Virus record (IMG/VR): IMGVR_UViG_2645728010_000005
DNA: 17,360 bases
Reading direction: 5' to 3' (one strand)
From: a virus
Taxonomy: Duplodnaviria > Heunggongvirae > Uroviricota > Caudoviricetes
A program made the position numbers and the translations under genes. The notes beneath the pieces were generated by a model that saw nothing but the letters and a program-made list of their open reading frames with translations, did no database searches and was not told the DNA's origin. Shown in pieces: positions 1-17,360 of the stretch (positions are counted from its first letter, which is position 1; every line of letters begins with the position of its first letter).

Positions 1-273
1 ATGTCAACCGGATTACGTTTCACACTGGAAGTGGACGGCCTGCCGCCGGATGCTTTTGCGGTGGTTTCCTTTCATCTGAACCAGTCACTCTCTTCGCTCT
101 TTTCCCTCGATCTCTCCCTGGTCAGCCAGCAGTTTCTCTCCCTTGAATTTGCGCAGGTGCTGGACAAAATGGCCTACCTGACGATATGGCAGGGCGATGA
201 AGTACAGCGCCGGGTGAAAGGCGTGGTGACCTGGTTTGAACTCGGGGAGAACGACAAAAACCAGATGCTGTAG
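1..273 (+). pseudogene. 5' fragment (~90 codons) of a VgrG-like gene (T6SS spike / Rhs-associated Vgr family)
   Basis: ORF 1..273 translates MSTGLRFTLEVDGLPPDAFAVVSFHLNQSLSS..., which I recognise as the conserved N-terminus of enterobacterial VgrG proteins (normally >600 aa). The frame stops at TAG 271..273, where tail-fibre homology on the opposite strand ends. Confidence 0.45.
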
Positions 274-718
274 CTGCATTCGTTTCTGAGGTTTTCGCCG
301 CGTTCTTCGATGATGCCGCTGCAGTTTCGGATTTCTTTGCCGCCGCTGCGCTCTGAGAGGCGGCTTCGGCGTTGCGTGCCGCTTCTTCCACCATTGCCTC
401 AAAACGACGCAATGCCTCCGGCATGACATCATCTTCCGTCATGGCACCGAGAAAATCATTCAGCGTACCTGGTCTGGAACCTTCATAGACGGTAATGGTT
501 CCGGCATGTGAAGGCGGAAAACCTTCAACCAGCAGGGTGACGCTGTACTGGCCATGCTCAACATCCATGCTGTAACGCCCGGCTTCATCCGGATTTTCAG
601 AGGCCACCGTGTTCACCAGTACCGTGGTGCTGTTACGCTTTGCCTTCAGTTGAATAGTGCAGTTCTGTATTGGTTTTCCCGCACCATCTTTCAGCACACC
701 TGAAATCTGTACTGCCAT
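122..718 (-). pseudogene. stf: Side tail fibre Stf, N-terminal fragment only (~155 codons of Stf-like sequence, 718 down to ~274, then out-of-frame read-through to the stop at 122)
   Basis: ATG at 718..716 with SD GGAGTG upstream. Translation MAVQISGVLKDGAGKPIQNCTIQLKAKRNSTTVLVNTVASENPDEAGRYSMDV... matches the lambda Stf N-terminus as I recall it. Full-length Stf is several hundred aa longer and no tfa follows. Confidence 0.6.
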
Positions 719-733
719 ATTCACTCCACAAAT

Positions 734-758
734 AAAAAAGGCGCCATTTCTGGCGCCC
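734..758 (-). terminator. Intrinsic terminator between J and stf (tJ-like)
   Basis: Hairpin GGCGCC-atttct-GGCGCC (740..757), followed on the minus strand by a T-run (complement of aaaaaa at 734..739). Confidence 0.5.
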
Positions 759-776
759 GTATCTGGGTTATAAAAT

Positions 777-2752
777 TCAGCTAATCATGATGCCTGCAGT
801 GGCTTTCTTCATCACCACAACCAGCAAATCGCTGATACTTGCTGTGGGATACCAGCCATTTACCAGCCATGCCGATACAGAAAATTCCAGTGTCATTACA
901 CCACTGCCTGCAGGCATATCAATAACACCCGTATATATCAGCGTATTATCCAGAGCCGTTCGGTTATAAATTTCAGCACCGTTTTTTCGTACTATCAGAC
1001 GGCATGAGGAGTAGATATCAGTATGATCTTGCTCATGTTTAGCGCCACTGAATGCCACCGCCGGAATAACAATTTGCCGGTCAAACGGCTGATCGTCATA
1101 AACCCTGACGGTAATGGTCCCTGATGGCCACCGCTCCGGTGCACGGGAGTCCCGGGGGAAAGCTTTGCCCACTGTTTTAACGAGATCGCCTTCAATCTGG
1201 TTCGCGGACAGTTTTCCCAGAACCCGGCAGTTCTCGTTAATCGTGACGTTGTTGAGCGTCCCGGAGTTCGCATTCACGTTACCGCTAATATCGGCATTTT
1301 TCGCCGTCAGCCGCCCGTCCGGTGTCAGGGAAAATGCCGGAGGATTACCGCCGCTGGTAATGGTGGGAGCCGTCAGATATTTCAGGAACACTTCGTTCAT
1401 GAATATCTGATCGCCCTGACCAACAAACATCGGCTTTGTGTTGCCATTCGCAGGATTAATCATCGCAATCCTGTCCGCCGCCAGCAGCACCTGACTCTGC
1501 ATACCGTCAGGGGTATTCTCAATACCGGCACCAATACCCGCGATATAAAGGCGTCCGTCCTGCATCTGCTGCAGCTTCACAGCCCACATGCTGTTCAGGT
1601 TATTATTTGTATCAACCTGAACCTTCTGTATCTGCTGGATTGCCGCACTCTGGTCTTCCAGTTTCTTATTGACGGTCTGCGTGATTTCATTACTGACATC
1701 CGTGATGGACGTTCTGATTTCCGCCAGGTCAGGCGCAAGCTGACCGTTATCAATCTGCGTCCACAACTCCTGAGCCAGATGGGTTTTCCCTATCTCTCCT
1801 TTGAAAAAATTCAGATAGCCGGATGCATCATCACTCGGCTGGCCAACAGCCTCCACGAATGCCGATTTGCCAACGGTGTTCACACTGCGGATGTAAAAAT
1901 AATAATCATGGCCCGGTTTGATATTGATACTGGCGGCTATCCAGTACAGCGCCGTGCCAAGATAGCGTGCTGTGGTTTCAACCTGCCTGATATCCGCAAT
2001 CCGCTTTTCCGAGAACCAGAACTCAAACTGTACCGTCGGATCATAAACCGCAAGATGCGGCGTGGCGGTTATCTGAAAATACCCCGGTGTCAGCTCAATC
2101 TGCGACGGCGCTGCCGGTGCGGCAATCCGGAACGATACCGACGCCGGCTCGCCCTGCTGCCCCCACGCATTTACTGCCCGGACTGTCAGCCTGTAGTTCC
2201 CCAGAGCCAGTTGTGTGAAGCGGTAAGTGGTTTCCGTCGTCCGGGCCGTGCTGACCAGTCGCTCACGGCCGTCATCCGCTGCCACGGTCAGGCGAAGCAG
2301 GAAGCTCACGCCCTTCACCACCTTCGGCGTATCCCAGCGGGCCAGCACCTGGTATTCCCCGCTGTCTGCGGTGACTTCTGCGGTCAGGTGCTGCACCGCT
2401 GGCGGCGTGACACCATTTACCGTGCCGCTCTGGTCGCCGTCAAAGTGCGCCCCGTTATCCACGATGGCCTCTTTTTCCGGTACATGCTGCACGGCGGTGA
2501 TGGCATACGTGCCGTCGTCGTTCTCACGGATACTCACGCAGCGGAACAGGCGCTGGCGCAACGTCGGCAGCTTCAGCCCCCATATGCCGGCTTAAACGTT
2601 CCGTCCCAGATACCGCTGTATTGCCGCGTCTGCGGGTTATAGTTCGACGGCACCTGCAGAATGCGCCCGCGAAGATGATAATTACGGCTCACCTGCTGGC
2701 TGCCGAACTGCTCCGAGTCCACCTGCACGCCGACCAGTGCCGTGTTCGGGTA
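777..2752 (-). pseudogene. J: Tail tip / host-specificity protein J remnant: C-terminal ~600 codons (777..~2582, track ORF starts at a TTG) plus a ~55-codon internal J segment in a different frame (~2582..2752)
   Basis: Minus-strand ORF 777..2561 (594 aa) contains [45 protein letters not shown]... and downstream blocks typical of lambda J (fibronectin-like region, [20 protein letters not shown]). A second minus-strand frame over 2583..2752 reads [57 protein letters not shown], which matches a more N-terminal part of J. Lambda J is ~1130 aa. Confidence 0.7.
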
Positions 2753-3257
2753 TCAGTTCATCCAGCGCGGCTGCTTTGTTCATGGCTTTGATGATATCCC
2801 GTTTCAGGAAATCAACATGTCGGTTTTCCAGTTCCGGAAAACGCCGCTGCACCGACAGGGGGATCCCGTCGAGAATACTGGCAATTTCACCTGCGATCCG
2901 CGACAGCACGAAAGTACAGAATGCGGTTTCCACCACTTCAGCGGAGTCTCTGGCATTTTTCAGCTCCTGTGCGTCGGCCTGCGCACGCGTAAGTCGATGG
3001 CGTTCGTACTCAATAGTCCCTGGCTGGAGATCTGTCTCGCTGGCCTGCCGCAGTTCTTCAACTTCCCGGCGCAGCTTTTCGTTCTCAATTTCAGCATCCC
3101 TTTCGGCATACCATCTTATAACGGCGGCAGAGTCATAAAGCACCTCATTACCCTTGCCACCGCCTCGCAGAACGGGCATTCCCTGTTCCTGCCAGTTCTG
3201 AATGGTACGGATACTCGCACCGAAAATGTCAGCCAGCTGCTTTTTGTTGACTTCCAT
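2682..3257 (-). CDS. nohD: Terminase small subunit Nu1 homolog, Nu1-like for ~170 codons then 21 unrelated codons (J-derived sequence read out of frame)
   Basis: ATG at 3257. Translation MEVNKKQLADIFGASIRTIQNWQEQGMPVLRGGGKGNEVLYDSAAV... is near-identical to lambda Nu1 up to ...AALDELIP, then diverges (EHGTGRRAGGLGAVRQPAGEP). Confidence 0.8.
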   Translation of the reverse strand: MEVNKKQLADIFGASIRTIQNWQEQGMPVLRGGGKGNEVLYDSAAVIRWYAERDAEIENEKLRREVEELRQASETDLQPGTIEYERHRLTRAQADAQELKNARDSAEVVETAFCTFVLSRIAGEIASILDGIPLSVQRRFPELENRHVDFLKRDIIKAMNKAAALDELIPEHGTGRRAGGLGAVRQPAGEP

Positions 3258-6048: not shown

Positions 6049-6918
6049 TATAGAACCCCCATAAATAACAGCCATTAATATAAATTAGCTAATAGGTTTA
6101 TTTTTGTTCAAATAAGAGCCATAAATAGGTTTCGATAGAAAAAGTTCAGATAAAAATAGAGATCTACTTCACAAATTAAATGAGAAACTAAAACTTACAT
6201 CTTGAAATAATCACATTGATTAGATGAATATTTATCGCGCAGTGACATCATTTTTTAATAATAGTTCAAAAAAAAGGGCTCACGATGAAAAAATTAACAG
6301 TGGCAATTTCTGCTGTAGCTGCATCAGTACTGATGGCGATGTCTGCTCAGGCAGCTGAAATTTATAATAAAGACAGTAACAAGCTGGATCTGTACGGGAA
6401 AGTTAATGCCAAGCACTACTTTTCCTCTAACGATGCAGATGATGGTGATACTACTTATGCCCGTCTTGGCTTCAAAGGTGAAACCCAAATCAACGATCAA
6501 CTGACTGGTTTCGGTCAGTGGGAATATGAATTCAAAGGCAACCGCGCTGAATCTCAAGGTTCCTCCAAAGACAAAACCCGTCTTGCATTTGCAGGCCTGA
6601 AATTCGGTGACTACGGCTCAATCGATTACGGCCGTAACTACGGTGTAGCATACGACATCGGTGCGTGGACTGACGTTCTGCCAGAATTCGGTGGCGATAC
6701 CTGGACCCAAACAGATGTGTTCATGACTGGTCGCACCACTGGTGTTGCAACCTATCGTAACAACGACTTCTTTGGTCTGGTCGATGGCCTGAACTTTGCT
6801 GCTCAGTATCAGGGTAAAAATGACCGCACTGACGTAACTGAAGCCAATGGTGATGGTTTCGGTGGTGATGCTGCCAACTTACTGATTTAGTGTATGATGG
6901 TGTTTTTGAGGTGCTCCA

Positions 6919-7194
6919 GTGGCTTCTGTTTCTATCAGCTGTCCCTCCTGTTCAGCTACTGACGGGGTGGTGCGTAACGGCAAAAGCACCGCCGGACATC
7001 AGCGCTATCTCTGCTCTCACTGCCGTAAAACATGGCAACTGCAGTTCACTTACACCGCTTCTCAACCCGGTACGCACCAGAAAATCATTGATATGGCCAT
7101 GAATGGCGTTGGATGCCGGGCAACTGCCCGCATTATGGGCGTTGGCCTCAACACGATTTTACGTCACTTAAAAAACTCAGGCCGCAGTCGGTAA
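6919..7194 (+). CDS. insA: IS1 InsA (transposition inhibitor / N-terminal part of the transposase)
   Basis: 91 aa [43 protein letters not shown]... with a zinc-finger CxxC...CxxC; canonical InsA. Confidence 0.9.
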
Positions 7195-7616
7195 CCTCGC
7201 GCATACAGCCGGGCAGTGACGTCATCGTCTGCGCGGAAATGGACGAACAGTGGGGCTATGTCGGGGCTAAATCGCGCCAGCGCTGGCTGTTTTACGCGTA
7301 TGACAGGCTCCGGAAGACGGTTGTTGCGCACGTATTCGGTGAACGCACTATGGCGACGCTGGGGCGTCTTATGAGCCTGCTGTCACCCTTTGACGTGGTG
7401 ATATGGATGACGGATGGCTGGCCGCTGTATGAATCCCGCCTGAAGGGAAAGCTGCACGTAATCAGCAAGCGATATACGCAGCGAATTGAGCGGCATAACC
7501 TGAATCTGAGGCAGCACCTGGCACGGCTGGGACGGAAGTCGCTGTCGTTCTCAAAATCGGTGGAGCTGCATGACAAAGTCATCGGGCATTATCTGAACAT
7601 AAAACACTATCAATAA
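7113..7616 (+). CDS. insB: IS1 InsB reading frame (expressed as the InsAB' transposase by -1 frameshift)
   Basis: 167 aa ...[28 protein letters not shown]...; canonical InsB, overlapping insA in the -1 frame. Confidence 0.85.
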
Positions 7617-8153
7617 GTTGGAGTCATTACCGGTTTCGGTTTCTCCACTACTTATGAGTATGAAGGATTCGGCGTGGGTGCAACCTATGCTAAATCAGAT
7701 CGCACTGACGGTCAGGTCGCCTATGGTAAGAGCAAATTCAATGCCTCCGGCAAAAATGCGGAAGTATGGGCTGCAGGCCTGAAATATGATGCGAACAATA
7801 TCTATCTGGCTACCACATATTCTGAAACTCAGAATATGACCGTTTTTGGTAATAACCATATTGCAAACAAAGCACAAAACTTTGAAGCAGTAGCACAATA
7901 TCAGTTTGACTTCGGTCTGCGACCATCTGTTGCTTACCTTCAGTCAAAAGGTAAAGACCTTGGTGTTCATGGTGACCGAGACTTAGTCAAGTATGTCGAT
8001 GTCGGTGCTACTTACTACTTTAATAAAAACATGTCCACTTTTGTTGATTACAAAATCAACTTAATTGACGATAGTAAGTTTACCAAAACAGCTGGTATTG
8101 ATACCGACGACATCGTCGCTGTAGGTCTGGTGTATCAGTTCTAATCTGATTAC

Positions 8154-15998: not shown

Positions 15999-16341
15999 GG
16001 CCTGTCAGTTTCTTAAGATATCCAGACCAACCGCCACCAACTGGATACGAACAGGCCGCCTACAGGCAACACGTAAAGATCCAACCAAGCCAAAATCTCC
16101 TTACCTCACAACACGGCAAGCCTGCATTGCGGCGCTTCAGTCTCCGCTGCATACTGTCCAGGTGAGCGCGGGTGATGGCATAACAGAGGAAAGAAAATGT
16201 CACTCTTCCGCAGAAATGAAATATGGTATGCCTCGTATTCGCTCCCGGGCGGGAAACGAATTAAGGAATCTCTTGGCACAAAGGACAAGCGGCAAGCTCA
16301 GGAGTTGCACGACAAGCGAAAAGCAGAACTCTGGCGAGTAG
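15970..16341 (+). CDS. xis: Excisionase / AlpA-like HTH DNA-binding protein (extent uncertain; overlaps the integrase start by ~145 nt)
   Basis: ATG 15970 with SD GAGGT; N-terminus [36 protein letters not shown] is a typical AlpA/Xis-type HTH; the C-terminal ~45 codons overlap int in another frame. Confidence 0.5.
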
Positions 16342-17360
16342 AAAAGCTAGGGGATTTACCTGATGTCACTTTTGAAGAGGCCTGCCTAAGATGGCTTGAG
16401 GAAAAAGCTGATAAAAAATCTCTCGATTCAGATAAAAGCCGGATTGAGTTCTGGCTTGAACATTTTGAGGGTATAAGGCTTAAAGATATCTCGGAGGCAA
16501 AGATTTACTCTGCTGTAAGCAGAATGCATAACAGAAAGACGAAAGAAATATGGAAACAGAAAGTTCAGGCCGCCATCAGGAAAGGTAAAGAACTGCCTGT
16601 TTATGAACCAAAGCCAGTACCAACTCAGACAAAGGCAAAGCATCTTGCCATGATAAAGGCCATTCTCCGTGCTGCAGAACGCGACTGGAAGTGGCTGGAA
16701 AAAGCGCCTGTCATCAAGATACCAGCGGTCAGAAACAAGCGAGTCAGATGGCTGGAAAAGGAGGAAGCAAAACGCCTTATTGATGAGTGCCCCGAACCAC
16801 TGAAATCTGTCGTCAAGTTTGCGCTGGCAACTGGTCTGAGAAAGTCGAACATCATAAATCTGGAATGGCAACAAATCGACATGCAGCGACGAGTTGCCTG
16901 GGTGAATCCAGAAGAGAGCAAATCAAACCGCGCCATTGGTGTGGCGCTGAACGATACCGCCTGTAAAGTGTTGCGTGATCAAATAGGCAAGCATCACAAA
17001 TGGGTGTTTGTACATACCAAGGCGGCTAAGCGAGCAGATGGAACATCAACGCCTGCGGTCAGGAAGATGCGCATCGACAGCAAGACATCATGGCTATCAG
17101 CTTGTCGTCGTGCAGGAATTGAAGATTTCCGTTTCCATGACCTCAGACACACCTGGGCAAGCTGGCTGATTCAGTCAGGCGTCCCATTATCAGTGCTTCA
17201 GGAAATGGGCGGATGGGAGTCCATAGAAATGGTTCGTAGGTATGCTCACCTTGCGCCTAATCATTTGACAGAGCATGCGAGGAAAATAGACGACATTTTT
17301 GGTGATAATGTCCCAAATATGTCCCACTCTGGAATTATGGAGGATATAAAGAAGGCGTAA
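16197..17360 (+). CDS. intD: Tyrosine-type phage integrase (DLP12 IntD-like)
   Basis: 387 aa [46 protein letters not shown]...; C-terminal catalytic box ...[42 protein letters not shown] (conserved H-x-x-R and Tyr). Stop codon is the last 3 nt of the window. Confidence 0.95.

Follow-up and report, generated by a model that had tools for sequence, protein, structure and literature searches.

The sequence analysed here, called the window below, is the whole stretch of 17,360 nucleotides of the virus record IMGVR_UViG_2645728010_000005. It is 100% identical to the reverse complement of positions 533908-551267 of the BL21(DE3) chromosome (NC_012971.2) and covers the cryptic prophage DLP12, from the start codon of a vgrG gene to the stop codon of intD. 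In BL21(DE3), cusS is found upstream of window position 1, at a distance of about 0.7 kb. The features of interest are listed below, first in window coordinates, then in those of the BL21(DE3) region L001.

1..272, plus strand: 5' fragment of vgrG (T6SS spike gene), codons 1-90 plus 2 nt, next to cusS
122..724, minus strand: chimeric ORF made of the stf N-terminus and, past the junction, some 50 codons that are antisense to vgrG (from the ORF list and its translation)
271..272: deletion junction, with TA at both REL606 breakpoints (2-bp microhomology) and 18,055 bp missing
271..273, plus strand: TAG stop codon at the join, with the TA common to both sides and the G contributed by stf
273..718, minus strand: 5' fragment of stf (lambda-type side tail fibre), codons 1-148 plus 2 nt of codon 149
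777..2585, minus strand: C-terminal fragment of a lambda J-type tail tip/host specificity gene, a pseudogene (RefSeq 'phage tail tip protein, missing N-terminus'; ORF 777..2561)
2583..2584: second BL21-specific deletion junction, 871 bp gone within the J pseudogene, common TA
2682..3257, minus strand: Nu1-like terminase small subunit (nohD homologue), 3' end fused to J sequence
16197..17360, plus strand: intD integrase, at the opposite prophage end; attL/argU just past the window end
L001 36197-37360: intD (RefSeq annotation)
L001 37376-37452: tRNA-Arg (RefSeq annotation)
L001 37374-37420: 47-bp att repeat (repeat search with the argU/attL region)

The layout is that of DLP12 in K-12 and B. 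The integrase gene adjoins the tRNA-Arg gene (argU), and the att repeats derive from the 3' end of this tRNA gene. Then come emrE, ybcK/L/M/N/O, rusA and quuD, an interrupted nmpC-type porin gene, essD-rrrD-rzpD, bor/iss and the Nu1 homologue. In K-12, nohD leads to tail-fibre-assembly remnants and appY, and nmpC carries an IS5. The B copy differs from that of K-12 in keeping a J fragment and a full stf, as seen in REL606, and in having an IS1 in the porin gene. Compared with the REL606 copy, the DLP12 of BL21 has further lost 871 bp of J and the entire right end. The porin gene of the window (6285-8144) is split by IS1A, the transposase of which occupies 6919-7616; that of K-12 DLP12 is presumably interrupted by IS5 and not by IS1A.

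The Nu1-like protein is identical in BL21 and REL606 (WP_000453609.1), and its tail, which includes ALDELIPEHGTGRRAGG, presumably departs from lambda Nu1. The fusion of Nu1 to J is an older deletion of head and tail genes, common to REL606. Around it (about window 2585-2760; ORF 2682-3257, minus strand), all the head genes and most of the tail genes are missing.

The vgrG and stf fragments

A first-pass annotation, made from the letters of the window, had described at its left end a plus-strand ORF of VgrG type stopping at 271..273. Translation of the ORF confirms this description. The ORF 1..273 starts with ATG, encodes 90 aa beginning with MSTGLRFTLEVDGLPP and ends with a TAG at 271-273. In many E. 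coli genomes, genes annotated as 'type VI secretion system tip protein VgrG' have a 5' end that is 100% identical to bases 1-272, and the start codon is that of the annotated vgrG of strain 14EC001; this nucleotide identity and the same start codon show descent from vgrG. Where the stump stops, the reading frame of intact vgrG goes on as TAC AGC.

Little of the VgrG protein is left. In Pfam searches, residues 29-87 of the 90-aa peptide match positions 3-60 of the 305 positions of Phage_GPD with 30.0 bits, for a cut-off of 30.1. Such a score close to the cut-off is expected for a short fragment. The stump does not make up a gp27-like hub domain (Phage_GPD), which in the REL606 copy is covered from position 3 to 303 (254 bits). 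The gp5-like OB-fold and the beta-helical C-terminal needle are absent from the 90-aa fragment; Phage_base_V and Gp5_trimer_C are both present in the 509-aa VgrG copy of REL606 (Pfam). RefSeq annotates the stump as a pseudogene with the C-terminus missing. Judging from its sequence, 1..272 is thus best described as a vgrG pseudogene fragment by descent, and not as a functional member of the VgrG/TssI family.

On the minus strand, an ORF starting at the ATG 718-716 begins with MAVQISGVLKDGAGKPIQNCTIQLKAKRNSTT, crosses position 273 and stops only at 122. Its translation from 718 down to 274 (148 aa) matches positions 1-131 of the 134 positions of the Pfam family phage_tail_N (PF08400, Prophage tail fibre N-terminal) with 230 bits, in agreement with the earlier description of a minus-strand Stf homology ending at about 274. 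The fragment is 100% identical to stf of REL606, the product of which has a full length of 781 aa. It is annotated in RefSeq as a pseudogene, 'prophage tail fiber N-terminal domain-containing protein'. The shaft and the C-terminal receptor-binding part of Stf are absent: residues 149-781 are encoded, and the downstream tail-fibre and tfa ORFs located, in the part of REL606 that is deleted here. A BLASTN search against the REL606 region found no further stf or vgrG sequence elsewhere in the window. The chimeric ORF corresponds to Stf residues 1-148 followed by about 50 out-of-frame codons antisense to vgrG, and nothing suggests that it has a function.

Endpoints of the junction

The endpoints were obtained from a BLASTN comparison of the window with the REL606 region (L002), which gave three collinear blocks, and from an ungapped base-by-base comparison. 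The window follows REL606 vgrG through position 272 (...CAGATGCTGTA|CAGCATG...) and REL606 stf from position 271 (...GCGCTGTTA|GCTGCATT...). The retained DNA on both sides of the junction is identical to that of REL606. The interval missing between window positions 272 and 273 corresponds to L002 10164-28218, that is 18,055 bp. Comparison with this undeleted relative, which had been proposed as a check, thus defined both endpoints, in stf codon 149 and in vgrG codon 91, within 1-3 bp of the place first noted. It also bears out the earlier reading that two genes of opposite strands are joined at a single point without their 3' parts, the 2-bp TA overlap being common to both. That the join is a single point is a deterministic fact of the sequence and not a statistical signal.

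Neither breakpoint shows an IS end, an att core or a repeat longer than the 2-bp overlap. The longest likeness between the breakpoints is 5 bp with one gap (GCTGT-A versus GCTGTTA). This bears on the possibility that a mobile element, or else homologous or site-specific recombination, gave rise to the deletion, for instance through an IS-adjacent deletion or an event involving Rhs/H-repeat sequences, Int or Pin. IS1, ISAs1 and Rhs repeats do occur in or near the region. However, the lack of any IS end, att core or repeat beyond these few base pairs at the breakpoints, and the position of the ISAs1 copy, well within the deleted interval, make such an origin hardly credible.

A perfect 10-bp palindrome, GCTGTA|CAGC (REL606 L002 28214-28223), is centred on the vgrG-side breakpoint; it corresponds to window positions 267-272 followed by the first 4 bases of the deleted interval.

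The undeleted locus in other strains

From the Nu1-like gene to cusS, REL606 has, in order:

a J fragment; a full stf (781 aa); three small tail-fibre ORFs; a tfa remnant
appY, ompT, envY, ybcH and nfrA; nfrB, with an internal stop
an ISAs1 transposase gene; two small ORFs; an Rhs core fragment; a 509-codon, C-terminally truncated vgrG

The same arrangement is found in the near-identical genome of strain 'C' (CP029371). A perfect 47-bp direct repeat of the 3' half of argU is located between ompT and envY (L002 16409-16455), inside the deleted interval. This repeat is the DLP12 attR. The 47-bp sequence is found at attL in BL21 and at attR in REL606, and only attR is absent from BL21. The first-pass annotation had proposed a deletion that removed the 3' part of stf, tfa, attR and the distal part of vgrG. 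All of these are contained in the 18,055 bp of REL606, tfa as a remnant. The supposition that this vgrG belonged to a T6SS/Rhs-type context also holds, as an Rhs core remnant accompanies the distal part of vgrG in the deleted interval of REL606.

The vgrG gene is part of an orphan vgrG-rhs island located between cusS and nfrB, and window positions 1-272 are the start of the vgrG of this island. In 14EC001 the island is intact (L004 14902-21829) and reads cusS, vgrG (633 aa), a DcrB-related protein, Rhs (1,505 aa), small ORFs, ISAs1 and nfrB. In E. coli B (REL606, strain 'C'), by comparison with 14EC001, an earlier internal deletion has fused vgrG codon 509 to a C-terminal fragment of Rhs. In BL21, only 90 codons of vgrG are left, with no Rhs sequence at all. 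The BL21 deletion did take away the distal part of vgrG, as first noted, but the gene was already a C-terminally truncated pseudogene in E. coli B. The island as a whole was degraded before BL21 (L002 26482-28489), the DcrB-like gene and most of rhs being gone with respect to 14EC001.

A side observation concerns nfrB, which carries an internal stop in REL606 (L002 21293-23530) and in strain 'C' and is annotated as a pseudogene in RefSeq. This component of the N4 receptor may therefore have been defective in E. coli B before BL21 lost the gene.

A query made of the end of cusS, the spacer and the vgrG stump finds a full-length match with a longer vgrG in 2,637 genomes. Such a longer vgrG stands next to cusS in the non-BL21 B strains REL606, ATCC 11303, 'B', NCTC10537 and AS19, and in wild isolates. 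Its length varies, from a 509-codon pseudogene in REL606 and strain 'C' to the full-length gene (633 aa) in 14EC001. Since a comparison of this kind is formally symmetrical with respect to insertion and deletion, the short form could in principle be ancestral, REL606 and other strains having gained 18 kb between short vgrG-like and stf-like ORFs. Nothing beyond this symmetry speaks for a gain. On the other hand, the stumps are exact 5' parts of longer genes (stf, 781 aa; vgrG, 509-633 aa), the long form is found in wild isolates and in every non-BL21 B strain while the short form occurs in a single laboratory lineage only, and the interval holds core chromosomal genes (envY, ybcH, nfrAB) as well as a prophage attR. 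An insertion is therefore extremely improbable.

Distribution of the junction and identity of the allele

Window positions 1-800 were compared by megablast with 5,426 complete E. coli genomes. A full-length, 100% match to the junction was obtained in 32 of these genomes, all of them BL21 or commercial or engineered derivatives; they include BL21, BL21(DE3), BLR, C41, C43, Rosetta2, NiCo21, T7 Express/NEB Express and BL21-AI. The undeleted strains REL606, ATCC 11303, B and NCTC10537 do not have the junction. As stf and vgrG have paralogues, with 2-4 matching places per record, the join might be suspected to result from misassembly of repeated prophage or vgrG sequences. The presence of the identical junction in 32 independently sequenced and assembled genomes, and the OmpT-minus and N4-resistant phenotypes, which fit a deletion, leave practically no room for an artefact.

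The BL21(DE3) lineage reportedly went through two UV treatments, which produced 16 large deletions. The BL21(DE3) genotypes given in published strain tables carry (ompT-nfrA)885, and BL21 is described as devoid of OmpT and of the phage N4 receptor genes nfrA and nfrB. UV is the presumed cause of the large BL21-specific deletions according to bioRxiv 10.1101/811059, which cites Table 4 of Studier et al. (2009). The gal-mod deletion is likewise ascribed to UV (Pinske et al.). The genes appY, ompT, envY, ybcH, nfrA and nfrB are all within the interval missing here, so that everything from ompT through nfrA is covered, in the same lineage and at the same locus as in delta(ompT-nfrA)885. The only difference from the catalogued allele is one of naming, in that the name understates the extent of the loss. 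Altogether, window positions 1-300 almost certainly represent the scar of one 18,055-bp deletion that arose in the laboratory lineage leading to BL21, and this deletion is the allele delta(ompT-nfrA)885.

Natural domestication has also to be considered: selection in the wild would have removed attR and the tail-fibre genes, thereby locking DLP12 into the chromosome. Prophage decay by deletion is common, and attR is really gone. However, the junction occurs in BL21-derived strains and in none of the others among the 5,426 genomes, it is missing from the original B strains, DLP12 could not form particles even before the event (as judged from the Nu1-J fusion in REL606), and the literature gives UV as the cause of the BL21-specific deletions. 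Domestication is accordingly very unlikely, and the event is to be regarded as one of a laboratory lineage and not as natural prophage domestication. The first-pass annotation had suggested that the deletion fixed the prophage in the chromosome. This stands insofar as attR was lost, the 47-bp repeat being absent, but the prophage was already defective and no live prophage was fixed.

We regard the junction as that of the catalogued ompT-nfrA deletion of BL21, hence as already known, and it brings no new biology. It is the physical join of the deletion that made BL21 OmpT-deficient and resistant to phage N4. The window derives from the strain most widely used for protein expression, and the value of the finding is mainly one of bookkeeping: exact endpoints can be given (stf codon 149 and vgrG codon 91, 18,055 bp, TA overlap), and the loss is seen to extend beyond the allele name to appY, envY, ybcH, nfrB, ISAs1, the DLP12 attR and the Rhs and vgrG remnants.

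Mechanism and consequences

The starting state is preserved in REL606, where the right arm of DLP12 carries stf, the three small tail-fibre ORFs, tfa', appY, ompT and attR. Beyond attR, the chromosome continues with envY, ybcH, nfrA, nfrB, ISAs1, two small ORFs, the Rhs remnant and the truncated vgrG, the latter facing the prophage beside cusS. From this state, two breaks, one in stf codon 149 and one in vgrG codon 91, were joined at the common TA. Such a joining would be illegitimate and of the microhomology type, involving neither an IS element nor long homology. The UV treatments of the BL21 ancestors may have been the trigger, as the literature proposes; this cannot be read from the sequence. 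Our search of the literature on UV-induced deletions, microhomology and BL21 returned nothing relevant, and PMC3446290 makes no mention of ompT, DLP12 or Rhs.

As a result, BL21 has no ompT, nfrAB, appY, envY or ybcH at this locus and its DLP12 has no attR; that the deleted genes are absent elsewhere in BL21 is taken from the literature. The join leaves two gene stumps back to back and creates a stop codon. Neither stump is likely to be functional, because most of the hub and the whole needle are missing from the VgrG piece, and the Stf piece has lost the shaft, the receptor-binding part and the chaperone gene. The prophage was crippled before the deletion: in REL606 as well, Nu1 is fused to the J fragment and the intervening head and tail genes are missing. 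Int-mediated excision should be impossible in BL21 because attR was lost, and the DLP12 remnant would no longer be able to leave the chromosome in this way; this possibility is probably the only one that the loss of attR removed.

A TA common to several BL21 deletion junctions

A second BL21-specific deletion lies 2.3 kb from the main junction. It removed 871 bp (REL606 L002 6981-7851) within the J pseudogene, again at a TA (CCCCATA|CGC at one breakpoint and GCTGTA|TGC at the other). The undeleted form of this J segment is found in REL606, in other B strains and in wild isolates. Two further deletions were reconstructed at other loci. The galM-ybhJ deletion is of 17,247 bp, a size that agrees with the literature, with a common TA (REL606/BL21 pair, L005 24047-24048 and 41294-41295 with L006 8826-8827). 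The sufA-sufB deletion is of 854 bp, with a common CTA (L007 40671-40673 and 41525-41527 with L008 8673-8675). At these two junctions, no homology longer than TA or CTA was observed. Both resemble the ompT-nfrA deletion in that they are specific to the same lineage, are ascribed to UV and are joined at TA.

TA is therefore found at all four reconstructed BL21-versus-REL606 junctions (TA, TA, TA and CTA for the 18,055-, 871-, 17,247- and 854-bp deletions, respectively). If dinucleotides are used evenly, the chance of such a coincidence is about 2e-4, roughly (1/16)^3. This recurrence may be a mark of the mechanism behind the UV-associated deletions. It raises the possibility, which we consider unlikely, that the approximately 16 BL21 deletions all have a TA and reflect a specific break-and-join chemistry instead of generic microhomology joining. 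Candidates for such a chemistry would be lesions or cleavage at TpA, leaving 2-nt self-complementary ends, or a TpA-anchored template switch.

Longer signatures were examined and discarded. GCTGT(T)A is found at, or at most 6 bp from, all four breakpoints of the two deletions of the window. The gal and suf junctions do not have this motif, and because of this the claim was reduced to the common TA. A C follows the left TA in all four deletions; this feature depends on orientation, TA being self-complementary and the loci being oriented differently. Finally, GTA/TAC is present at 6 of the 8 sites for about 44% expected, which is not significant.

The outcomes of these deletions also differ, since the suf deletion gives an in-frame fusion protein, whereas the ompT-nfrA junction joins genes of opposite strands and leaves stumps only.
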